Positions 4,311 to 15,326 of a DNA stretch of 32,518 nucleotides are shown in pieces. Positions within the stretch are counted from its first letter, which is position 1. Every line of letters begins with the position of its first letter. The translations under genes and the position numbers were made by a program. The notes beneath the pieces were generated by a model that was given only the letters and a program-made list of their open reading frames with translations, had not been told where the DNA came from and ran no database searches. Source of the stretch: a virus (lineage: Duplodnaviria > Caudoviricetes); the IMG/VR virus record IMGVR_UViG_3300044769_000077, positions 1-32,518 of that record; one strand, 5' to 3'.

Positions 4311-4353
4311 CACCGGAGGCTCCGGCATAACGGGGCCTCCGGTGTTGTTGCTT
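4311..4353 (+). terminator. Intrinsic terminator-like hairpin after the capsid gene
   Basis: CACCGGAGGCTCCG-gcataa-CGGGGCCTCCGGTG followed by TTGTTGCTT. Confidence 0.7.
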
Positions 4354-4620
4354 ATGGCCAATACCTTCGTACTCATCGTGCAGCAGCCGCTGGAGTTTCA
4401 AGGCCAGTCCTATCAGCCCGGCGATCGGTTAGTCGCGGACTGGACCGAATCGCCAGGGTTGAAACGAAGCGGCCTCGCGATCCTTGCGCCTGAAGAGGAA
4501 CAACGCGCGCACGGCGCCGCCCCACGCTTGGTGAAGCGGTCTCGCGGGCGTCCACGCAAAGCACAAACCGAGACAGCGGCGGCCACGTATCAGCGGCGCG
4601 ATCTGCAGGCGGAAGAGTGA
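4354..4620 (+). CDS. Small basic head-associated protein
   Basis: Follows capsid; AT-hook-like RGRPRK and C-terminal YQRRDLQAEE. Confidence 0.75.
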   Translation: MANTFVLIVQQPLEFQGQSYQPGDRLVADWTESPGLKRSGLAILAPEEEQRAHGAAPRLVKRSRGRPRKAQTETAAATYQRRDLQAEE

Positions 4621-4622
4621 CG

Positions 4623-5303
4623 TCAGGCCGCGATCAGCTTGTTGGATTTCCGGCAGTTCTCGGTTTCGGTGAGAACTTGCAGATTCCAGACGACATGCAG
4701 GCCACACACGGTCTTGCCTCGCAAGGGAACGATGTGATCGACATGGTGCTTAATGCCTGTGTCAGCCGTCAGCCTTTGGGCCTGCTTATAAACCGCGCGC
4801 ATATCTTTTGCGTTTGTCCACGGTGGCATCGCACTCATGCGAGTGGCGCGACGCCTAGCGTGATCGACGCTCACTCGATCTGGATGTCGGCGTTTCCATT
4901 CACGGAGTCTCTTATTGCGAGCGTGAACAGTCTCCTTGTAGCGCTCCTGAAATTTATTGCGGCCATTTTCAGTTGCCAGATATTTGTGCGATCGAGCCAG
5001 TTGCTTGGCCGGGTCTATCGCATATGCCTTTTTACTCCGCGTCCGAGATCGCAACCGAGCCGCTTCAATATCGGCGTGATACCTGGCGTGCTGAATAGCC
5101 AGTTGCTCGGTTTTATGGAGTTCGTAGTACGCCTTCAAATACCGTGTCATGTATTCACGACGGTGTGCGCGCTGTTTGTCTGTGGGCTTGCGTTTGGCTT
5201 GATAAGCCTGTCTGTAGGCGCGGCACTGCTCGCTGTGTGTTTCCCGATAGCGCTTATTCGCCTCTCGGCATCGTCGCTTGCGTTCTTCTGGCGGCATAGC
5301 CAC
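4623..5303 (-). CDS. HNH endonuclease 1 (free-standing, antisense to late operon)
   Basis: HHVDHIVPLRGKTVCGLHVVWNLQVLTETENCRKSNK; Arg/Tyr-rich helical N-terminus. Confidence 0.92.
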   Translation of the reverse strand: MAMPPEERKRRCREANKRYRETHSEQCRAYRQAYQAKRKPTDKQRAHRREYMTRYLKAYYELHKTEQLAIQHARYHADIEAARLRSRTRSKKAYAIDPAKQLARSHKYLATENGRNKFQERYKETVHARNKRLREWKRRHPDRVSVDHARRRATRMSAMPPWTNAKDMRAVYKQAQRLTADTGIKHHVDHIVPLRGKTVCGLHVVWNLQVLTETENCRKSNKLIAA

Positions 5304-5318
5304 GGGCCTATTTTATCA
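5304..5318 (-). promoter_or_regulatory. Extended -10 promoter for leaderless HNH 1 mRNA
   Basis: Minus strand TG-A-TAAAAT-aggccc-GTG. Confidence 0.7.
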
Positions 5319-5323
5319 AAGTC

Positions 5324-6742
5324 ATGAACTTCCTAGGGCTTTCGATCACCAGAACCAAAGCGCCAAATGGCCTGATGACGCCAGACAGCCGCAATGGTTG
5401 GTACCCCATAGTCAGAGAAGGATTCGCAGGAGCCTGGCAGCAAAATATTTCTACGCCGATCGTTGACGTTCTGTCGCACCCCACCGTTTTCGCGTGCATG
5501 ACACTCATCGCTTCAGATGTGGCGAAGATGCGCCTCGAGTTGGTGAGAGAAGAGAACGACGATGTTTGGATCACGACTGAGAATCCTGCATTCTCTCCAG
5601 TTCTCAGGGCGCCCAATGGGTACCAAGTTCCGTTTCAATTCTTGACGCAATGGCTTATTAGCAAGCTGAGCTCGGGCAACACGTTTGTACTAAAACAGCG
5701 TGATCAGCGCGGCGTAGTGGTTGCTCTCTACGTCCTGGATCCGAATCGTGTGCGCCCGTTGATTGCACCTGACGGCAGCGTGTTCTACGAGTTGAAACTG
5801 GATCCACTTGCGGCGCAGGGCGACGACGTCTTGATCGCGCCAGCACGAGAGATCATTCACGACTTAATGAACCCGTTGTTTCATCCATTAGTGGGGATCT
5901 CGCCGCTCTATGCGTCGGGCATTGCGGCGATCCTCGGTCTGCGTATTCAAACCAACAGCACACATTTTTTCAGCAACAATTCGCAACCAGGCGGCATTCT
6001 CACGGCTCCAGGTGCGATCAGCCCGACGACTGCGGATCGGCTCAAGGCTGAATGGGAAACGAAGTTTGGCGGGATCAACGCCGGCAAGGTCGCGGTCGTA
6101 GGCGATGGGCTGACATATGTCCCGCTCGCGCAGCCTGCGGACAAATCCCAACTCAATGAACAGTGGCTCGCCGCCTCGCAAGCGATTGCCGTGGCCTTCC
6201 ATGTGCCCTGGTATCTGGTCGGCGGTCCTCAGCCTCCGTACAACAACATCCAAGCGCTGAACGTTCAGTACTACACACAATGCATTCAGCCGCTCTCGAC
6301 GTCATTAGAACAGGTCATGGACAAAGGTCTCGGATTGAGCCCTGACAAGATCGGCGGTGTGCGGCTCGGCACACAGTTCAACGTCAAGGATCTGTTGTGG
6401 ATGGATTCGGCCACGATGATGGACGTCATCAGCAAGGGCGTCGGCGCGGGCGTGTTAAAGCCAAATGAAGGGCGGTCGGATCTCAATCTCGGGCCGGTGA
6501 AGGGCGGCGACACGCCGTACTTGCAGGTTCAGAACACTAGCCTCGCGGCTTTAGATAAGCGCGATCAGGCCGCCGCAGCGACACCGTCGTCGAATTTGCC
6601 TCCCCAGTTGCCAGCTGACGACGAGCCCGATCCTGACGATGCGCCGCCTGACCAGACACGCGGATTAGGCGCCGCGTTCGCGCCGGTGCTTCATAGGCAA
6701 GTCACGGACGCTGGACTCTATGACGGTTCGGCTTGGAACTGA
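5324..6742 (+). CDS. Portal protein (HK97 family)
   Basis: TVFACMTLIASDVAKM, PNGYQ, GNTFVLK, LYVLDP, EIIHD, GISPL, FFSNNSQPGGIL, LKPNEGR, PVKGGD. Confidence 0.95.
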   Translation: MNFLGLSITRTKAPNGLMTPDSRNGWYPIVREGFAGAWQQNISTPIVDVLSHPTVFACMTLIASDVAKMRLELVREENDDVWITTENPAFSPVLRAPNGYQVPFQFLTQWLISKLSSGNTFVLKQRDQRGVVVALYVLDPNRVRPLIAPDGSVFYELKLDPLAAQGDDVLIAPAREIIHDLMNPLFHPLVGISPLYASGIAAILGLRIQTNSTHFFSNNSQPGGILTAPGAISPTTADRLKAEWETKFGGINAGKVAVVGDGLTYVPLAQPADKSQLNEQWLAASQAIAVAFHVPWYLVGGPQPPYNNIQALNVQYYTQCIQPLSTSLEQVMDKGLGLSPDKIGGVRLGTQFNVKDLLWMDSATMMDVISKGVGAGVLKPNEGRSDLNLGPVKGGDTPYLQVQNTSLAALDKRDQAAAATPSSNLPPQLPADDEPDPDDAPPDQTRGLGAAFAPVLHRQVTDAGLYDGSAWN

Positions 6743-7440
6743 TTTGATTTGCGCTTGTTTTGGTCGCTCGTGAGGATTTGAAGATTGGCCGGAATGTGAA
6801 GTCCACAGATACGCGGATGTCGCAACGGAATGATGTGGTCGACCTCGTGCCGAATGCCGGTCGCGCCGGTCAACCGCGCCGCTTCCTTGTAGACCGTTCG
6901 CATTGCGACGTGGTCCGCCCATGGTGGAGTCGCCTCCAACTTGATCGCATTCCGTTTCGCGACAATCGCATTGATCCGCCCCTTGTTCGCCTTCGCCCAC
7001 GTGCGATACGACTGTCTAGCGTATTCAACATGGGCTTCGCGCCAGCGCTTAAAACACTGGCGCTTCCATTCTCGATTGTTGTCGTACCACTCTGCGAACG
7101 CATGCGGATGGGCCAGTTTCCATTTTGCCGATCGGGCGTTGGCGCACATGCGACACGTCCACGACAACCCATCAGCCGACGCTCTTCGCCTGGGGAAGTC
7201 CGCACGCGGCTTAATAGCTTTGCAGACATTGCAGCTTTTCAAGCCAGCTGCATCAAGATTCGCGCGCTGCTTACGTTCATCTGCCAGAGACGGCTTGCGG
7301 ATGTGCGACATACAGGGCTTGCAGTCCGGTACGCAGCCATACGCGCCACGGGACGGTCTTTCTCCGGTAGTTCGTCCGATTTTAAAGAAGGCATCAAGCG
7401 GCTTGCTGACTCCGCAATATCTACACACCTTCTCAGTCAT
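6718..7440 (-). CDS. HNH endonuclease 2 with N-terminal CxxC zinc motifs
   Basis: CRYC, CKPC, CNVC, CRMC; HEVDHIIPLRHPRICGLHIPANLQILTSDQNKRKSN; 3' end overlaps portal 3' end. Confidence 0.92.
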   Translation of the reverse strand: MTEKVCRYCGVSKPLDAFFKIGRTTGERPSRGAYGCVPDCKPCMSHIRKPSLADERKQRANLDAAGLKSCNVCKAIKPRADFPRRRASADGLSWTCRMCANARSAKWKLAHPHAFAEWYDNNREWKRQCFKRWREAHVEYARQSYRTWAKANKGRINAIVAKRNAIKLEATPPWADHVAMRTVYKEAARLTGATGIRHEVDHIIPLRHPRICGLHIPANLQILTSDQNKRKSNQFQAEPS

Positions 7441-7568
7441 CGTGGCGCTTCAATATGCGCATCGATGATGCGTCTGACCAGTTCGGCGATGGAGATGCCA
7501 AGCCGCTTAGCCTCACGCTTTAGGAAGTGCCGCTGTGGGTCGGTGAACGAAATCATCTGCTTAATCAT
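7437..7568 (-). CDS. 43-aa ribbon-helix-helix protein
   Basis: Not in ORF track; MIKQMISFTDPQRHFLKREAKRLGISIAELVRRIIDAHIEAPR; stop overlaps HNH 2 ATG (ATGA), start overlaps upstream gene end. Confidence 0.8.
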   Translation of the reverse strand: MIKQMISFTDPQRHFLKREAKRLGISIAELVRRIIDAHIEAPR

Positions 7569-7989
7569 GCGGCCACTCCCCAGACGCAATCATGCGCGTG
7601 CGGTGCTCGTTTGCAATTTTGATTGCGTGCGTCTCATCTTTCGCCCAAATATCCGCCTGAAGGATGTCTGGCTTATCTGGCTTACCACGATAGGCAGGCG
7701 CTTGCGTCCGTCTCCACATCCGCACAGAGCCAGCCAGATCGTAACCGCTGATTTCAAATGGCTCGCACCGCTCGGTTGTTCCGTCCTTACGCATGTCTAC
7801 AAGGTAGCGCTTGAAGCCTTGCCGCAGTTCGTTGATCACCGGATCGATCGGCCACTCAGCTACAGTCGCATCGCGCGTATCACCACCGAGCGCGTCTGCA
7901 ATCTGTTTAGCGTTAGCTTCAGACGAAAACACGCCGACCACGCGGTAGTCGGAATAGCTGCCTTGCTCAACAACCCAGACTGTTGGCAT
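7561..7989 (-). CDS. Hypothetical phage protein, 142 aa
   Basis: Protein-like composition, VWVVEQGSYSDYRVVGVFSS N-terminus, own promoter, coupled to RHH gene. Confidence 0.8.
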   Translation of the reverse strand: MPTVWVVEQGSYSDYRVVGVFSSEANAKQIADALGGDTRDATVAEWPIDPVINELRQGFKRYLVDMRKDGTTERCEPFEISGYDLAGSVRMWRRTQAPAYRGKPDKPDILQADIWAKDETHAIKIANEHRTRMIASGEWPHD

Positions 7990-8004
7990 GGGCGCAGTAT
8001 ACCA
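7990..8004 (-). promoter_or_regulatory. Extended -10 promoter for leaderless cassette-2 mRNA
   Basis: Minus strand TG-G-TATACT-gcgccc-ATG. Confidence 0.75.
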
Positions 8005-8029
8005 CAGGGTATCCCTTCACGGCTGTCGT

Positions 8030-9277
8030 ATGCAGGCTAAGGAACTGGAAGCGTTTGCGGCTGAAGTCGTGCAGTCCATGAAGATGGCCATGGCTCCTGT
8101 GGTTGCTCGCGTCGCCACGTTAGAACGCGATCTGAAGGCTGCGACTGAACGAGCCTCCGAACTTGAGGCTAATACCCGTAGAGCCGTGTCCACGAACCGC
8201 GACGACATAGGCACTGCCATTGCTGACGCGATGGCGCCGCTGCTCGAGAAGAACGCATCGCTGGAACTGCGGATCATGGAACTCGAGACGAACCCGGCGC
8301 TTGGTCCAGCCGGACCGATTGGTCAAAAGGGCGAAACAGGCGCTGGGGTTGCGTCGCTGGTTGTGACGGCTGACGGGCGTCTGTTGGCACATTTCACAGA
8401 CGGCCGGAGTGTCGACGTCGGTCCTGTGCCCCACGGGTTGCCAGGGCCGCCAGGTGAGCGCGGCGAGCCTGGGCCGTCGGGTAAGAGCGCTGTTCTCTCC
8501 ATGGAGTCAGTCGTCGCAGCCGTGCTGGAGCGGCTCCCTGCGCCGACACCAGGCGACAAGGGAGACGCAGGACCAGCCGGCAAAGATGCGCCAGCGGTCG
8601 ACGTGGACGCCCTAGTAACGCGTGTCGCGGCGCTCGTGCCTGTGCCCAAGGACGGGCGGGACGGGAAAGATGGGGCCGTAGGGCTCGCCGGCAAAGACGG
8701 CGTACCGGGAGAACGCGGGCTGCAAGGCGAGAAAGGGATCGACGGTTTGCACGGCCGCGACGGCCGCGACGGGGCTCCTGGGCTGCCGGGCATGGCGGGC
8801 GAGAAAGGCTTGGACGGCACACACGGCCGAGACGGCCTGGACGGAAAAGATATCGATCCGCAGGCTGTCAAGGCGTTTGTGGTGGCCGAGCTCGCGACCT
8901 GGCCACGGCCGAAGGATGGCGCGGACGGCCGCGATGCCCGATTGGAAGGGCTGACATTCGCCTTTGACGGCCAGCGCACCGTTACCGCCTGTTTCAAAGA
9001 TGGCACGCCGATCGAGGGCGGAACGTGGGTGTTGCCCACCACCATTTACCGCGGCGTGCATCAGGCCGGCGCGTCGTATCAGACGGGCGATAGCGTCACC
9101 TGGGATGGCCACACGTGGATCGCGATGGCAGATACCTCCGAGGCTCCAGGTGAAGGATCCAAAGCGTGGCAGTTGTCCGTACGTCGCGGCAAGACAGGGA
9201 AAGAAGGCCGCGCTGGGAAAGATGGCAAGGATGCCGTGACTCGGACGACCAACACCCCTCCGCTCTACGGTGGGTGA
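8030..9277 (+). CDS. Collagen-like virion protein (coiled coil, Gly-X-Y blocks, C-terminal carbohydrate-binding-like module)
   Basis: MQAKELEAF start; GPAGPIGQKGETG, GRDGKDG repeats; YRGVHQAGASYQTGDSVTWDGHTWIA...WQLSVRRG. Confidence 0.85.
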   Translation: MQAKELEAFAAEVVQSMKMAMAPVVARVATLERDLKAATERASELEANTRRAVSTNRDDIGTAIADAMAPLLEKNASLELRIMELETNPALGPAGPIGQKGETGAGVASLVVTADGRLLAHFTDGRSVDVGPVPHGLPGPPGERGEPGPSGKSAVLSMESVVAAVLERLPAPTPGDKGDAGPAGKDAPAVDVDALVTRVAALVPVPKDGRDGKDGAVGLAGKDGVPGERGLQGEKGIDGLHGRDGRDGAPGLPGMAGEKGLDGTHGRDGLDGKDIDPQAVKAFVVAELATWPRPKDGADGRDARLEGLTFAFDGQRTVTACFKDGTPIEGGTWVLPTTIYRGVHQAGASYQTGDSVTWDGHTWIAMADTSEAPGEGSKAWQLSVRRGKTGKEGRAGKDGKDAVTRTTNTPPLYGG

Positions 9278-9972
9278 TGCGAAATAAGTTCGAGTACGCC
9301 ACCGTGCCGCGTCTCCTGCCGACTGGCGGGACGGCGGTGATCCTTGGCTCAGGGCCATCGCTGACGCGGGCCGATGTCGACCTCACCCGAGCACACTGCG
9401 ACCTGACGATCGCTATCAACGACAGCTATGTGCTCGCGCCCGATGCGACCGCGCTCTGGGGCGCCGATGACAAGTGGATGGTGAAATGGCATCAGGGGTG
9501 TTCGGCTGCGCACCTCCACAACGGCAGGGCGTATCCGGCATTTACCGGCCAGTTTAAGTTCTGCCTGTCGCGGACCCCATACGCAGACGTGATGGTCCTG
9601 AAGCGTGGCCCGCGAATCGGGCTCTGCCTCGAACCGGACCGTGTCGCGCTAGGGTCAAACGGTGCGCATCAGTCGATCAATCTGGCGGTGCATTTCGGGG
9701 CGACGCGGATCATTCTGCTCGGTGTCGACATGAAGCCGGGGAAGGTGTTTCGCGATGGGGCCTGGCGGCCGTCGGATCACTTCGCGTGGCTCGGCCGCCA
9801 TCAGGATGATTCCAAGCCGCCGTACGAGCAGTGCTTGTCCTACATGGCGACGCTTGCGGAACCGCTGAAGAAAATCGGGGTCGAGGTTGTGAACTGTAGC
9901 CCTGATTCTGCGTTGCGCTGTTTCCCGATGCGGGCGTTGCGTGATGTCTTTCCACAGGCGGTGGCGGTATGA
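9277..9972 (+). CDS. DUF115/Maf-like (nonulosonate transferase-type Rossmann) protein
   Basis: AVILGSGPSL, IAINDSY, SNGAHQSINLAVHFGATRIILLGVDM, VVNCSPDSAL. Confidence 0.75.
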   Translation: MRNKFEYATVPRLLPTGGTAVILGSGPSLTRADVDLTRAHCDLTIAINDSYVLAPDATALWGADDKWMVKWHQGCSAAHLHNGRAYPAFTGQFKFCLSRTPYADVMVLKRGPRIGLCLEPDRVALGSNGAHQSINLAVHFGATRIILLGVDMKPGKVFRDGAWRPSDHFAWLGRHQDDSKPPYEQCLSYMATLAEPLKKIGVEVVNCSPDSALRCFPMRALRDVFPQAVAV

Positions 9973-10070
9973 ACCTGCCAGGCGGAATCGAACCACGGAA
10001 TTGCACCCTTGTCCGCATGTTCTTCGGCCGAATACTGATGCGGCTTCACCTTGTTATCGGTGCTGGCAGG
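9970..10070 (-). ncRNA. tRNA-like cloverleaf RNA (non-canonical)
   Basis: Minus strand: CCTGCCAG/CTGGCAGG 8-bp acceptor-like stem, CACC-GATAACAA-GGTG D-like arm, CCGCAT/ATGCGG arm with 19-nt interior, GGG-TGCAAT-TCC variable arm, GTGG-TTCGATT-CCGC T arm, 3' TTCA. Confidence 0.65.
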
Positions 10071-10085
10071 GGCAGCACTTTACCA
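10071..10085 (-). promoter_or_regulatory. Extended -10 promoter for the tRNA-like RNA
   Basis: Minus strand TG-G-TAAAGT-gctgcc then the first base of the acceptor stem. Confidence 0.65.
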
Positions 10086-10765
10086 TGAAGGCGCTGATCC
10101 CGTTGCCGACCGCTGCGGATCCGGCACAGGTGGAGCGCATCCGCCCCCTGCTCGAGGGTCGCGCCTGCGTGATCGTGGGATCGGCACCGCTGCGCGCGAC
10201 GACGGCCGCCATCAGTGCAGACGAACTCGCGATCGCCGTGAACGGGGGAATCTCCAGCCTTCCAGGTGCAGCGGATCTCTGGGTAGTCGGCAGCAAGAAA
10301 CAGGATCGGCCCGGCGAGTCCTATGTCCAGCCGTTGCATCGCACGATGTTGCAGCAAGCGAAGGGACGGACGGTCGGGCATCTCCTGTTGTTACGCGGGC
10401 CGACCGTGATGAGCGAAGCCTGGACGCTGGCGCGGCTCGACAAACTGGGCTGCCGTTACGGGTCGTGGTCAGTGCTGGACAAGCTGACGAAGCGTTGGAT
10501 GGAAGGTGAGATCTGCGGACGGACCGACGACAAGGCACCGTGCTCGTCAGGCATCCTCACCGCGGCTATCGCGCTCTGGTGTGGCGCAGCCTCGGTGCGG
10601 CTCGTCGGCTTTTCGTTCACGGCTGGCTATCACTATCTGCCTGGACAGTCCGCGCCGCCGTGGTGGCGAAATCATGTGGACGCAGACCGCCGTGCCATCC
10701 AGGCGTTGCGGCAGCGGTACGGCGTTCGGTTGACTGGGGATCTCGTGCAGGCGGTGGCGGCGTGA
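10085..10765 (+). CDS. GT29/sialyltransferase-like protein
   Basis: CVIVGSAP (sialylmotif L-like), CSSGILTAAIALWCGAASVRLVGF (motif S-like), YHY and downstream His. Confidence 0.65.
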   Translation: MKALIPLPTAADPAQVERIRPLLEGRACVIVGSAPLRATTAAISADELAIAVNGGISSLPGAADLWVVGSKKQDRPGESYVQPLHRTMLQQAKGRTVGHLLLLRGPTVMSEAWTLARLDKLGCRYGSWSVLDKLTKRWMEGEICGRTDDKAPCSSGILTAAIALWCGAASVRLVGFSFTAGYHYLPGQSAPPWWRNHVDADRRAIQALRQRYGVRLTGDLVQAVAA

Positions 10766-10833
10766 TGTTAGCCGTGGTGCTAGGCGTCTTAGCGATTGGG
10801 GTCGTGCTGGCCGGCGTGTATCTATCGCGATGA
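10765..10833 (+). CDS. 22-aa hydrophobic micro-ORF
   Basis: MLAVVLGVLAIGVVLAGVYLSR; TGATG and ATGA overlaps with neighbours. Confidence 0.5.
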   Translation: MLAVVLGVLAIGVVLAGVYLSR

Positions 10834-10871
10834 AAACAGTCATCTTCTTAGGTAAACGAAAGACGGCATGA
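10830..10871 (+). pseudogene. 13-codon orphan duplicate of the N-terminus of the gene at 11458
   Basis: MKTVIFLGKRKTA* versus MKTVVFLGKRKTAG. Confidence 0.8.
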
Positions 10872-10876
10872 AGACT

Positions 10877-11362
10877 CTAGTTGCGTGGACGAGGCGTGCG
10901 GTGACTCTTCCGAGTGTCCAACGGTGCCGTCAAGGCCTGTTCAATCGGCCAGTGGCGCTTCAGGCGCATCAGCAGGCACTGATGCTAGATGCCTTTGCGC
11001 CGCGCCCACTCTGTCAAGCACAGAGTGATGCCTTCATGGGTCAGCCAGCGGGTGATCGATCGGTTTTGCTGTTGTTGCTCGGCTGTAGCCCAACGCACAT
11101 TGCTCGGTTCGTAATTGCCGGCGTTGTTGATTCTGTCCAGCGAATATCCGGGCGGACACCGACCCATATCTTGAAGAAATGCGGCGTAATCATTCCAGCG
11201 TTCGCACACGCTAATGCCACGTGCGCCATAACGAGGAAACAGTTGGTGATTGTGGCGCTGGCATCTCGCCCGCATGTTCTGCCAAGTACGCCATTCGACA
11301 GTGCGCGATCCATGAACGGATTCGCCGTGCTTTCCAGGTCTGATAGATTTGTGCTTAGCCAC
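10877..11362 (-). pseudogene. HNH-type endonuclease 3 with internal amber stop at 10985-10987
   Basis: GAGAGGA SD, GTG11362; WQNMRARC, RYGARGISVCERW, SLDRINNAGNYEPSNVRWAT; after EWARRKGI* the frame continues HQCLLMRLKRHWPIEQALTAP, the expected helical tail. Confidence 0.8.
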
Positions 11363-11365
11363 GCG

Positions 11366-11441
11366 ATTTCCTCTCTTCAGGAAATAGTGTTGGTGAGAGG
11401 CCGTCGGGCGGTGAACGCGCTCGTCGGCCTCGCTTATTTTA
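11366..11441 (-). promoter_or_regulatory. HNH 3 promoter (-10 TAAAAT) and structured 5' leader with two hairpins
   Basis: TAAAAT at 11441-11436; long hairpin 11397-11431; ATTTCCT/AGGAAAT hairpin 11366-11385 covering the SD. Confidence 0.6.
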
Positions 11442-11457
11442 CCGCAGTGGTGGCGGT

Positions 11458-12060
11458 ATGAAGACGGTAGTTTTCCTTGGCAAGCGTAAAACGGCTGGCT
11501 CGCCGCTTGTCGATTGGCCCGGTGCTGAGTTATGGGGAACCACACATAGCCAGCAGAAGTACGCGAAACGCTACGGGACCGTCGACGACTGGCATGCGTG
11601 GTGGGACTTGCATCCATTTGATCCGGTGCCTGGCTATCCCGGAATCAAGAAGAAGCGACAGAAGACCTATCGCTGGTATCAGACCCTCCCAGGTCCGGAT
11701 CAGCCTGGGTATCGTCCGCTCTGGCTCGTGGAACTCGATCCGACGATTCCAGCCGGTGTGCTATTTCCGAAGCAACGGATCCTCGACGCCTTCCCACGAG
11801 AGGTACATGGGCGCTGGTTCACCTGTCAAGTGGATCTGATGATGGCTTACGCGATCCTCGAAGGCTATGAGCACATCATCCTGCACGGGCACGGAATCAG
11901 CCGCGAACTCAGTCACATGGTGGATCACTGCGGCGTGTTGGTCTGGATGACGGTCGCGCGCGAGCGCGGGATTCAGGTCACGATCCTGCCGCCGAGTTGG
12001 TATCTGGGGCCGAAGCATCCGTACGGCATTTCGCCTGGTCACTGGGGCCTCCATCCATGA
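11458..12060 (+). CDS. Hypothetical protein, DUF115/GT29-like Rossmann family
   Basis: VVFLG N-terminus, ELWGT, FTCQVDLMMAYAILEGYEHIILHG resembles the C-terminal motif of the two upstream transferase-like genes. Confidence 0.6.
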   Translation: MKTVVFLGKRKTAGSPLVDWPGAELWGTTHSQQKYAKRYGTVDDWHAWWDLHPFDPVPGYPGIKKKRQKTYRWYQTLPGPDQPGYRPLWLVELDPTIPAGVLFPKQRILDAFPREVHGRWFTCQVDLMMAYAILEGYEHIILHGHGISRELSHMVDHCGVLVWMTVARERGIQVTILPPSWYLGPKHPYGISPGHWGLHP

Positions 12061-12683
12061 CCAGCTATTTCATCCAGCGTGCCCAGCACGGCGAGGATGT
12101 GCTGCTCGTACGGCTGTTCCGCAGCATCGGGACGACGAATCGCGTGGCGGTGGACTGCGGCGCAAAGGACGGCATCTTCAAAAGCAACACCGCGCGATTC
12201 AGGCAAAAGGGCTGGCGCGTCGTGGCGTTTGATTGCGAGACGGATTCGCCACTCGTCACGCGGGCACTCATCACGGCCGAGAACATCAATGCGGTCTTGG
12301 CGCGCAAACGCGTCCCGGCGCAGTTCGATCTCTTGTCGATCGACATTGACGGGAACGATTTCTGGATCTGGGACGCGCTCACGTTTCAGCCGCGCGTTGT
12401 CATTGTCGAATACAACCCTGGCTTCGGATCGGACGTCTCGGTGACGGTGCCGTATGACCCGTCTCGGCGCTGGGATGGCACGATCTATTTTGGCGCCAGC
12501 GCGCGGGCGTTGTGGTTGCTCGGACAGCGGAAAGGCTACCGCCTGCACGCCTATACGCGATCCAACCTGATTTTTGTGCGCGCCGATCTCGTCGACGAGG
12601 ATCTCGCACCAGAGGACATGCCGATCCCCGGGCGTGCGAAGCGACCCGATCCACAGGCGCGGCCGTGGCAGGTGTACCCATGA
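12057..12683 (+). CDS. FkbM-like SAM-dependent methyltransferase
   Basis: AQHGED, VDCGAKDG...SNT, FDLLSIDIDGNDFWIW, PRVVIVEYN. Confidence 0.85.
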   Translation: MTSYFIQRAQHGEDVLLVRLFRSIGTTNRVAVDCGAKDGIFKSNTARFRQKGWRVVAFDCETDSPLVTRALITAENINAVLARKRVPAQFDLLSIDIDGNDFWIWDALTFQPRVVIVEYNPGFGSDVSVTVPYDPSRRWDGTIYFGASARALWLLGQRKGYRLHAYTRSNLIFVRADLVDEDLAPEDMPIPGRAKRPDPQARPWQVYP

Positions 12684-13690
12684 AGTCGGTCCAGGAGATC
12701 CGCAACACCGCGATCGATACGGTCCTGACGCATCTGCGATCGCTGGCGAAGAGTGGGCAGCCGATCGTCATCGGGCCATGGCTGGGCGAGATCGGCTTCG
12801 AGTTGCTGTATTGGATTCCGTTTCTGCGGTGGGCGCAGCGGTCTGTCGGGTTGACACCGGACCAGCTCACCGTCGTATCACGCGGCGGTTGTCAGTCGTG
12901 GTACTCGGACATTACGCCGCACTACATCGAACTCTATGACCACTACACGCAGGCCGAGTTACGGCACGGTAACGATCTGCGTATTCTTGAGCAAGGGTAC
13001 GCCGGTCGATTGCTCGGCTGTCGGCGTGGCTTTCGGTCGGCGAAGCAACACGCCGTGTTCACGTTCGATCGGGAGATTCTTGCCCGCGTGGCGCCGGATG
13101 CGCAGGTGTTGCACCCGTCGCTGATGTACACCCTCTTTCGCTGGTACTGGCGATCACGGGTGCCCGATCTCTATGAGCGATGCGCGATCGTGCGGCGGAT
13201 GACGGCACCAGCCGCGGCCGTCTCGCTGCCTGAGTCCTATATCGCCGTGAAGTTCTATTCCTCGCAAGCGTGCGAGGCGACGGGGGCGTACCGACGGCAC
13301 GTCAATCGCATCATGACGCTGTTGGTTGATACGGCGCCGGTTGTGGTCCTTGATAGCGGCGCGGACTATGACGAGCACGGCTCGTTTCCGATCGAGCATG
13401 CACAGGTACTCCGTCCTGTCTTGGAACCACGGACGAATCTGGCCACGCAGACCGCGATCATTGCTGGCGCGACGTCCTTTGTCGGGACGTATGGCGGCTT
13501 TGCGTATCTGGCGCCGTTACTCGGTGTCCCCACGACGGCGTTCTATACCGCGCGCAATTTCCGCGATGACCATTACGCGTTGGCGTCCCGTATCTTTGCG
13601 AAGAAGCGTGTGCGGTTCGTGGTTCGGCATCTTGAAGACGGAGCAACGGCGCTGCGTCGAGACTGGAAAGCGTGGACACATGCCGCGTAA
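12680..13690 (+). CDS. Putative GT-B-fold glycosyltransferase (GT9-like C-terminus)
   Basis: GPWLGEIGFELLYWIP; NLATQTAIIAGATSFVGTYGGFAYLAPLLGVPT. Confidence 0.65.
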   Translation: MKSVQEIRNTAIDTVLTHLRSLAKSGQPIVIGPWLGEIGFELLYWIPFLRWAQRSVGLTPDQLTVVSRGGCQSWYSDITPHYIELYDHYTQAELRHGNDLRILEQGYAGRLLGCRRGFRSAKQHAVFTFDREILARVAPDAQVLHPSLMYTLFRWYWRSRVPDLYERCAIVRRMTAPAAAVSLPESYIAVKFYSSQACEATGAYRRHVNRIMTLLVDTAPVVVLDSGADYDEHGSFPIEHAQVLRPVLEPRTNLATQTAIIAGATSFVGTYGGFAYLAPLLGVPTTAFYTARNFRDDHYALASRIFAKKRVRFVVRHLEDGATALRRDWKAWTHAA

Positions 13691-13799
13691 CTGCCTGATG
13701 CCACCGGATCGCGACTTCTGGCTGTGGCTGTTGCATCACGAGAATAGTGATGCGGTTGAACGTGTCATCGCTCGTATGGTGTTGCTGGTGGCGCGGTGA
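13680..13799 (+). CDS. 39-aa micro-ORF
   Basis: MPRNCLMPPDRDFWLWLLHHENSDAVERVIARMVLLVAR; overlaps both neighbours. Confidence 0.45.
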   Translation: MPRNCLMPPDRDFWLWLLHHENSDAVERVIARMVLLVAR

Positions 13800-14374
13800 T
13801 GCGTCCTGACCTCTACGCGCCAGGTTCGGCGTATCACCAGCAGCGTCGGTGGACGCAGAAGCACGCTGTTCGCTGCTTGGAGTCAGCTATCGAGTTGATG
13901 GGGAAGCCGGGGAGCCTCCTCGATGTGGGCTGCGCGGAAGGCGGCCTCGTGCTCTGGGCGTCAGGGCAAGGGATCGAGGCGATGGGGATCGATCTCGCCA
14001 CGCCATCCGATCTGTCTCTGGTGCGCGCAGATCTGCAGAACCCCGTTGATCTGCAGCGTATGTTTGACTGGGTACTGTGCTGGGAAGTCGCCGAACATCT
14101 GCCGGAGTCAGCCGCAGACACGCTCTGCCAGACGTTGGCTCGGCACGTCGCGCCAGCGGGGCGGCTACTGTTTACGGCGGCGCCACCGGGACAGCGCGGG
14201 CCGGGCCACATTAATCTGCAGCCAGTCGAGTACTGGCTCGAGAAGCTCTACGCCGCTGGCGGGCTGGTCTGTGCGGAGAAGCCATCGATCGCGCTTCGGC
14301 GTGAGTGGTTGAAGGTTGCGCCTAAGTGTCCCTGGTACGGAAAGAACGCGATCGTAGCCTGGAGGGTCGCGTGA
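13796..14374 (+). CDS. Class I SAM-dependent methyltransferase
   Basis: LLDVGCAEG, GIDL, FDWVLCWEVAEHL, GQRGPGHIN. Confidence 0.9.
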   Translation: MMRPDLYAPGSAYHQQRRWTQKHAVRCLESAIELMGKPGSLLDVGCAEGGLVLWASGQGIEAMGIDLATPSDLSLVRADLQNPVDLQRMFDWVLCWEVAEHLPESAADTLCQTLARHVAPAGRLLFTAAPPGQRGPGHINLQPVEYWLEKLYAAGGLVCAEKPSIALRREWLKVAPKCPWYGKNAIVAWRVA

Positions 14375-14604
14375 TCCGAGTCGCTGGCTACACGTCTAAC
14401 AACGACGATGACCCAATCGTGTGGGAAGTCTATGGGCAACGGTTGGAGGAAGGCGAGCTGCGTTTCAGGCATGTCGTGATGCGAGCGTCAGATAGGACGC
14501 GGTTGGTCAATGCCTTCGGAGAGCCATGGTTGGAATGTGAACAGGCTCGGCAATTGCTGAAGATACGTGCCTGGGAACAGCACTGTAGCGGTGGAGTGAA
14601 TTGA
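14371..14604 (+). CDS. Hypothetical protein, 77 aa
   Basis: GGAGG SD, GTGA overlap at start, TTGA overlap at end. Confidence 0.55.
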   Translation: MIRVAGYTSNNDDDPIVWEVYGQRLEEGELRFRHVVMRASDRTRLVNAFGEPWLECEQARQLLKIRAWEQHCSGGVN

Positions 14605-15326
14605 AACTCCTCCTAACGATCCGCACGGCGAACCGCGCACCGAAGACGAACTATCTCGGGGTGACAGTGTTAGGCCTGTTAGGACAAGGCGTGGCGGCTG
14701 ATTCAATTCATATTGTCGCCACCGACCCTGCTGTGGGTTGGGCGCATCAGGAGGTGCGTTACCCCGTGTGGCTTCATCAGCCGGACCTCCACCGCCGACC
14801 TAACGAGAACGGTATTGCTGCCATTGATCTACTCGGTCTCTTTCCAGCCGACTGGATCATCCTCAGCGAAGATGATCTGGAATGGTGCGCGGATCCTATT
14901 GGCAGCATGTCGCGCTGGCTCGAAGCGCACGCGACTCCTGACCGCGTGATGTATCGCTTCTTTGCCTTTGATCGCCTGACACCTGTCAGCGCGCACGCGG
15001 CAACCGCGCCACTGCGTGAACAGAAAGGTTCGCAGGCTGTGGCGTTGCGTGCGGATGACGCGCGGCGGTTTGCCGCCTGGGCGAAGGCCCATCCTCTCGA
15101 CTGGCGGCCGAAAGGCGCGCCCTTTCAGCATCGGCCACATGACGGCTTTGACAAGTTGCTCGGCTACTGGGCGCTACAGGACAACCCGAACATGACGACG
15201 GGACTTGTCTCGCGTCCGTTCTTCGTACGACATCTCGGTACCGACAGCAGCCTTCACTCTCACGGGGTCCGCATGGATCGCGAGTTTGCCGGATCGACTT
15301 GGTCCTATGGTGAGGTGCCCGTATGA
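14601..15326 (+). CDS. Putative GT-A-fold glycosyltransferase
   Basis: DWIILSEDD acidic motif, GSQAVAL, FDKLL, FVRHLG; GGTGGAG SD with TTG start. Confidence 0.7.
   Translation: MKLLLTIRTANRAPKTNYLGVTVLGLLGQGVAADSIHIVATDPAVGWAHQEVRYPVWLHQPDLHRRPNENGIAAIDLLGLFPADWIILSEDDLEWCADPIGSMSRWLEAHATPDRVMYRFFAFDRLTPVSAHAATAPLREQKGSQAVALRADDARRFAAWAKAHPLDWRPKGAPFQHRPHDGFDKLLGYWALQDNPNMTTGLVSRPFFVRHLGTDSSLHSHGVRMDREFAGSTWSYGEVPV

Follow-up and report, generated by a model that had tools for sequence, protein, structure and literature searches.

The window analysed here, a stretch of 32,518 nucleotides (nt; IMG/VR record IMGVR_UViG_3300044769_000077), is a 32.5-kb contig of an HK97-like phage with terminase, a protease-capsid fusion, portal and tail genes and a cI/cro-like pair; the phage is probably temperate and is present in sediment and groundwater metagenomes. 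Four inserts carrying genes or an RNA on the opposite strand interrupt its late operon and, as the original prediction had it, each is crossed on the late strand by a stop-free open reading frame (ORF) connecting the flanking genes, here called a bridge (Table 1). Genome-level figures below were computed on the window alone, and L numbers denote loci in other phages, the close twins included.

Table 1. Bridges, antisense cargo and adjoining late genes in window coordinates
Feature	Position	Strand	Remarks
92-amino-acid (aa) late gene upstream of insert 1	4342..4620	+	TGA overlaps the GTG of bridge 1; gene overlaps portal directly in L003 and L005
Bridge 1, 236 codons	4617..5327	+	GTGA/ATGA; in-register antisense of HNH1
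HNH1, free-standing HNH-motif endonuclease gene	4623..5303	-	phrog_1035 E=2.7e-9, phrog_26577 E=4.9e-26
TAAAAT hexamer with TG extension, predicted promoter	5310..5315	-	6 nt before the HNH1 GTG, in the portal Shine-Dalgarno (SD) position
Portal gene	5324..6742	+	PF04860; no SD-like pairing upstream (-2.1 kcal/mol)
HNH2, HNH-motif endonuclease gene	6718..7440	-	phrog_1035 E=6.5e-27
Candidate mini-ORF relay into bridge 2	6720..6781	+	ATG6720 or TTG6744 to GTGA6770, three codons, TTGA6778
Bridge 2, crossing three antisense genes with about 430 stop-free codons	6748..8040	+	ends 8 nt inside the collagen-like gene
43-aa ribbon-helix-helix-like gene	7437..7568	-	weak PF01402 match, E=0.009
142-aa gene with DUF7336	7561..7989	-	TATACT hexamer 7996-8001, 6 nt before ATG
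Collagen-repeat late gene	8030..9277	+	PF01391; no SD-like pairing upstream (-1.8 kcal/mol)
Bridge 3, 39 codons	9969..10088	+	ATGA/ATGA; opens at gene 10085's resident start site
tRNA-like RNA of no known family	9974..10070	-	8-bp acceptor, D arm, long arm, two T-loop-like hairpins; TAAAGT hexamer 10077-10082
Stub of 13 codons from the resident 5' end of gene 11458	10830..10871	+	one mismatch to the 5' end of the gene in twin L081
Bridge 4, 197 codons	10868..11461	+	ATGA/ATGA; in-register antisense of HNH3
HNH3, HNH endonuclease gene with internal TAG at 10985-10987	10877..11362	-	phrog_3377 E=2.2e-39; intact homologue in L123
HNH3 leader, 73 nt	11363..11441	-	conserved in L123 (809-890, -); TAAAAT 11436-11441; two hairpins, z=-3.3 and -2.5, the second over the SD
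Divergent 5' end of gene 11458, incoming	11458..11619	+	against L081, 38 mismatches in 162 nt and 0 in the remaining 438 nt

The nuclease domain of HNH1, HNH2 and HNH3 is recognised by PHROG endonuclease/HNH matches (E=3e-9 to 2e-39), with no Pfam HNH match for any of the three, and their occurrence is patchy, HNH3 being absent from twin L081 and HNH1 and HNH2 from relatives with 65-70% identical portals. The inserts had been described as self-promoted, which stands in part: a sigma-70 two-box scan (-35/-10) of the window returned 0 sites, but TANNNT hexamers precede the antisense starts, by 6 nt in three of the four cases and by 73 nt at HNH3. A -10-like hexamer is found at 8/9 short-leader starts against a background of 1.3%, a partly circular comparison in which some starts were chosen by eye. 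The hexamers predicted for HNH1 and for the tRNA-like RNA lie where the SD of the next gene would be, in agreement with the earlier suggestion that an antisense promoter fills this space before the portal gene, and the -10-like hexamer of the cargo often occupies the SD region of the displaced gene. The portal and collagen-like genes, said to have no obvious SD, indeed have the weakest pairing of 13 filled junctions.

Bridges 1, 3 and 4 lead from the stop of an upstream frame to the ATG of the downstream gene over distances of 707, 116 and 590 nt, each equal to 2 mod 3. At bridge 1 the other two frames contain 13 and 5 stops and the bridge frame none; at bridge 2 they contain 14 and 18, and the bridge frame again none. 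Bridge 2 is the looser case that it had been taken for: its cassette changes register, with HNH2 and the 142-aa gene in register with the bridge and the 43-aa gene out of it, its TAA makes an 11-nt overlap with the collagen-like gene, and its first start, TTG6760, lies 18 nt downstream of the portal stop. A relay of mini-ORFs might feed it, although such chains arise easily by chance. For bridge 4, ATGA at both ends is correct, whereas the ORF upstream of it has to be reinterpreted as a 13-codon leftover of the 5' end of gene 11458 itself.

Empty versions of these sites are available for comparison. In twin L002 (99.7% identical), which is without insert 3, the flanking genes are joined by ATGA; twin L081 (99.4% identical) is without inserts 3 and 4 and likewise has an empty ATGA site at insert 3, as does sequencing run X10; and in relatives the 92-aa gene is joined directly to the portal gene, and the portal gene to the collagen-like gene. 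Because empty sites already read NTGA, both junction words come with the site whenever an insert leaves the two flanking genes whole, and the tightly packed late operon has 4-nt NTGA overlaps at 13/27 native junctions and 1-nt overlaps at 3 more. Thus, the exact ATGA and GTGA junctions, on which the original prediction had relied, lose their value as evidence, and the signal lies in phase and openness rather than in the junction 4-mers. Insertion at a start codon with a 4-nt ORF overlap describes inserts 1 and 3, nine inserts in relatives, and the cultured phage CherryTomatoes compared with its twin SCentae (see below). The exceptions are insert 4, which, as the comparison with L081 shows, landed 13 codons inside gene 11458, left the stub upstream and brought in a divergent 5' end, and insert 2 with its longer overlap. 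Judged by these positions, antisense inserts of the late operon sit at or just inside a start codon.

Loci in relatives were found through the flanking genes and not through the bridge, with gaps picked by eye from gene maps. The junction before gene 11458 (g10085/g11458) was recovered at 18 loci, 7 direct and 11 filled, and an open coupled frame crosses the filling in 11/11. These fillings comprise an intact HNH3 homologue (L123), an HNH 3' remnant only, still in phase (L091), two homologous antisense genes of 68 aa, both crossed out of register (L007 and L126), an antisense gene of 169 aa (L004), a predicted zinc-ribbon gene (L113, one and the same insert as L121), an antisense tRNA-Arg (L118) and an unassigned stretch (L086); those of L081 and L110 are short same-strand membrane ORFs and were excluded from later counts. 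A second L086 insert, at a different junction, is bridged at both ends, and the L085 insert is coupled at its 5' end only. Although the inserts are mutually unrelated and range from 98 to 1310 nt, open in-phase frames recur over them, as the original prediction would have it for related phages, in 9/9 further cases in relatives. Among the tabulated inserts (three from the window and nine from relatives, leaving out the two looser cases, bridge 2 and L085) the start-to-start distance is 2 mod 3, with 0 stops, in 12/12.

Short hydrophobic same-strand ORFs with NTGA overlaps are also found at the same or neighbouring junctions (window 10765-10833, L110 917-1045, L098 11989-12099 and L088 4804-5058), and could be either genuine small membrane proteins or degraded bridges. 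In L088 (7521-8465) the homologue of gene 9274 is longer by about 40 codons, reaching an ATGA overlap with the next gene, and may represent a read-through form of a bridge.

HNH homologues in other phages served as a control. From 90 loci (the best 80 of 574, plus 10), 6 duplicates or own twins were dropped, and the remaining 84 comprised 18 in which the gene is antisense to both flanks, 45 co-directional, 7 mixed and 14 unclassified. Over the whole ORF, 7/18 antisense-placed but only 1/45 co-directional genes have an open reverse frame (p=3.8e-4), and over the core 12/18 versus 8/45 do (p=5.6e-4). Open reverse frames are thus enriched among antisense-placed homologous cassettes, for which the plus frame had been proposed to stay free of stops. 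Stops are depleted in the in-register frame alone (p=1.7e-5; other frames p=0.99), and GC content does not separate the groups (p=0.46); below a GC content of 0.5 the frame is open in 4/8 antisense-placed and 0/13 co-directional genes. Open reverse ORFs in these other phages end within -10 to +11 nt of the next start in 9 of 14 cases, 5 of them with the exact 4-nt overlap, although the open cases are partly non-independent (L140, L146 and L187 share a site, and likewise L147 and L169).

The sequence constraint on the two strands differs. In five pairwise comparisons the ratio of non-synonymous to synonymous differences (pN/pS) is 0.41-0.54 for the antisense genes, which are under purifying selection, and 0.90-1.55 for the bridges, in line with the expectation that bridge amino acids are not conserved, and control shadows of ordinary genes give 1.15-1.16, like the bridges. 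Bridges are 25-42% identical where the antisense proteins are 41-67% identical, no bridge has a Pfam or PHROG match, and a protein search with bridge 1 returned itself only. RNA runs X23 and X24 contributed few short unstranded contigs. The frame is kept and the protein is not, and the reverse frame is held open by selection, as in an ambigrammatic gene.

We consider it the most probable explanation, at roughly 0.68, that the bridges combine hand-off with cover, in that an in-phase open frame would let ribosomes cross the insert and be handed to the displaced gene. The resident start site opens the bridge, and ribosomes would start there, cross the insert by translating it, and feed the downstream gene through termination-reinitiation at the 3' overlap; ribosome cover might in addition protect the mRNA from Rho polarity, and only inserts that permit both crossing and hand-off would be tolerated. 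According to the available portions of two reports, overlaps support termination-reinitiation with a variable need for an SD (PMC6728339), and untranslated mRNA invites Rho polarity (PMC12548453). The original prediction saw in the inserts selfish elements, but bridges also cross a tRNA-Arg, unknown small genes and a dead remnant of an HNH gene. The filter is for this reason better placed at the level of the phage: tolerance likely acts on any cargo, with homing endonucleases as frequent profiting passengers. Of the proposal that bridges are a device for harmless insertion, we retain that they are open, in phase, unconserved and enriched, and give up the junction words as evidence and the restriction to selfish cargo.

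Several observations weigh against hand-off with cover or limit its reach. Strong SD pairing is present at 5/13 downstream starts, where a hand-off may be unneeded; the open frame ends 50 nt before the next gene in L085 and 28-54 nt before it in L183, L187 and L192; and bridge 2 is without a clean 5' overlap. The inserts exceed late genes in C-richness only slightly (p=0.03) and 9/14 are still G-rich, and because this C-over-G skew is weak there is no strong Rho-loading signature. In the control set, where flank orientation was assigned by our own simple gene caller, 5' coupling was detected in only 5/14 distant open cases, 6/18 antisense-placed HNH genes have stops in every reverse core frame, and the closed cases L128, L165 and L178 lie beside terminase genes; among distant portal-bearing loci, only 9/22 antisense runs have an open frame. 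The bridge rule is strong in this phage family and common elsewhere, where some phages have unbridged inserts.

The most serious alternative, which we nevertheless regard as unlikely, is that the frame is selected and translated mainly as a cover for the mRNA, against Rho termination, decay or antisense RNA pairing, while the downstream gene starts on its own. The strong SDs at those five of 13 starts and the bridges that stop 28-54 nt short of the next gene are what it would predict, the reverse ORF in L187 follows an intergenic gap and begins with an SD and ATG of its own, Rho polarity on untranslated RNA is established in the part of the literature already cited (PMC12548453), and translation as a shield has been proposed, in the accessible text of that study, for narnavirus reverse ORFs (10.1101/2020.12.18.423567). 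However, cover alone needs no stop placed on the next start, yet phase is kept in all 12 tabulated inserts; the portal and collagen-like starts are without an SD, and the weak C-over-G skew likewise argues against it.

Far less probable is that the bridges are chance shadow ORFs of GC-rich genes, which rarely use the reverse-stop codons TTA, CTA and TCA, with junction words that were simply inherited from the empty sites. The caution that long antisense ORFs are common in this genome was fair: genome-wide these codons make up 113/8681, and 4/31 genes have an open reverse frame. When the probability of an open frame given its phase, P(open), was estimated by synonymous-codon resampling with the codon usage of the genome or of the co-directional HNH control genes, it was 0.16 or 0.008 for bridge 1, 0.027 or 0 of 4000 for bridge 2, and 0.18 or 0.015 for bridge 4, while bridge 3 alone, at 0.39, could well be open by chance. 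The lenient joint probability is 3e-4 for the four window bridges (1e-5 with three 1-in-3 phase factors) and 1.2e-6 for six independent inserts in relatives (2e-9 with phase). In addition, co-directional HNH homologues at matched GC do use such codons (137/5946 versus 13/2114), the contrast between antisense-placed and co-directional loci persists below a GC content of 0.5, and phase holds throughout the tabulated set. The out-of-register bridges of L007 and L126 and the bridge over the tRNA-Arg of L118 exist as well, and codon bias cannot account for them. For the family as a set, chance is largely refuted, although single short cases may still be due to it. Equally improbable is that the bridges are true overlapping genes for functional proteins, since a length of up to about 430 codons and a hydrophobic C-terminal stretch in bridge 1 are set against a pN/pS near or above 1, the low identities, the absence of Pfam, PHROG or homologue matches reported above, and the filling of one and the same junction by unrelated sequences of 32-197 codons.

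The cargo itself deserves some further remarks. The tRNA-like label of insert 3 is only partly borne out: it folds into a cloverleaf (z=-1.9) with a long irregular arm, but it was missed by ARAGORN and Rfam, and a canonical tRNA with a 7-nt anticodon loop was not recovered. An exact pattern search for relatives of this RNA found the twin only, and a looser one three other loci in a different context; L220 holds a smaller element with the same two T-loop-like hairpins. Relatives of the 142-aa DUF7336 gene were found in twins only. The in-frame TAG of HNH3 is also present in contigs of other sequencing runs, and amber recoding is unsupported, TAG terminating 5/32 late ORFs. The 162-nt divergent tract beside HNH3 fits co-conversion during homing but equally ordinary recombination. 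Near HNH2, at about 6440-6570, 5/6 DNA runs examined in detail contain a second portal allele with some 16 substitutions, possibly a homing target or a conversion tract, although ordinary recombination fits too. The protein encoded at 10085-10765 is only 68% identical to that of the 99% twins L002 and L081, and we conclude from this identity that the allele of gene 10085 was swapped together with insert 3. Neither a self-splicing intron nor an intein was found, as no group I or group II intron RNA was matched by Rfam anywhere in the window and the inserts lie between genes and end in stops.

Elsewhere in the window, the large terminase (549-2152) consists of two ORFs with an ATGA overlap at 1493-1496, a split shared with L084 and L088, and is a single ORF in L005 and L007. 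Between the collagen-like gene and the head-completion genes, a family-conserved block (9274-15326) carries predicted sialyltransferase-like, methyltransferase and unknown genes, possibly for virion glycosylation. A short GCT/TGC repeat tract is present near the contig start (5-61), within a 162-aa ORF (18-506). No close prophage was found in GTDB genomes, in which the best portal matches are 45-51% identical.

Given that the constraint seems to fall on the translatability of a frame rather than on its product, the bridges would represent such selection in DNA phages with a matched control at hand, and offer a candidate answer to how backward endonuclease genes and other cargo settle in essential operons without splicing or extra promoters. 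Whether this extends to a general, splicing-free tolerance in phages, in which an open in-phase bridge on the opposite strand is enough to make any antisense gene or RNA harmless, is a question on which we judge the odds to be even. If it were true, such genes in many phage groups would be under a predictable ban on reverse-stop codons, a constraint for which any phage genome can be scanned; the bridges would account for a class of mis-annotated 'hypothetical proteins'; and translated junk ORFs might form a pool from which new small genes, the short membrane ORFs at these junctions for instance, could arise. Annotators should bear in mind that where a long ORF covers an antisense gene, it may be translated and still be meaningless.

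A comparable layout exists in a cultured phage. Among the cultured-phage matches inspected (H54, H55, H2 and H122, of which H55 and H2 are not antisense to both flanks), Gordonia phage CherryTomatoes (PP978796.1) carries an antisense HNH gene, gp177, spanned by a 220-codon ORF that has no annotation and runs into gp179 through an ATGA, and in its twin SCentae the gp179 homologue starts exactly at the start position of this ORF. Openness is not significant in this GC-rich genome (P(open)=0.63), and for this reason the case is used for its layout only. Together with the empty twins SCentae and Pupper, CherryTomatoes provides a cultured system in which the idea is testable now.

In the open-access literature searched we found no description of reverse bridge ORFs in phage operons, and several known systems share parts of the arrangement. 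In phage T4, as far as the available part of one account goes (PMC2988022), HNH and GIY-YIG endonuclease genes such as segD and mobE lie between essential genes, with segD antisense between genes 23 and 24, and SD-sequestering hairpins and co-conversion tracts resemble what is seen at HNH3; the coupling described there concerns only same-strand translation of the endonuclease itself (mobE), and that part does not mention a reverse bridge. Integron ORF-11 and the short ORFs of attC sites, in the portion of the work at hand (PMC8876359), are alike in that a sequence-indifferent ORF carries ribosomes across non-coding or structured RNA by termination-reinitiation, but they are a few codons long, lie in recombination sites and have no antisense gene, and the window has no integrase or attC. 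The ambigrammatic narnavirus, as presented in the accessible text (10.1101/2020.12.18.423567), has a long stop-free reverse frame without homologues whose translation itself seems to matter; it differs as a eukaryotic RNA virus with whole-segment overlap, no operon and no coupling to flanks. Interspersed repetitive units of mycobacteria (MIRUs), in the part of the report available (PMC12548453), are likewise start-codon inserts with an internal ORF coupled by a 4-nt overlap and have been proposed to be harmless. They are short repeats of one family, whereas the inserts described here are unrelated and 0.1-1.3 kb long, so that our inserts are MIRU-like in their working only; and, unlike in a MIRU as described there, the coupling ORF here lies on the strand opposite a working gene or RNA that has a predicted promoter of its own.

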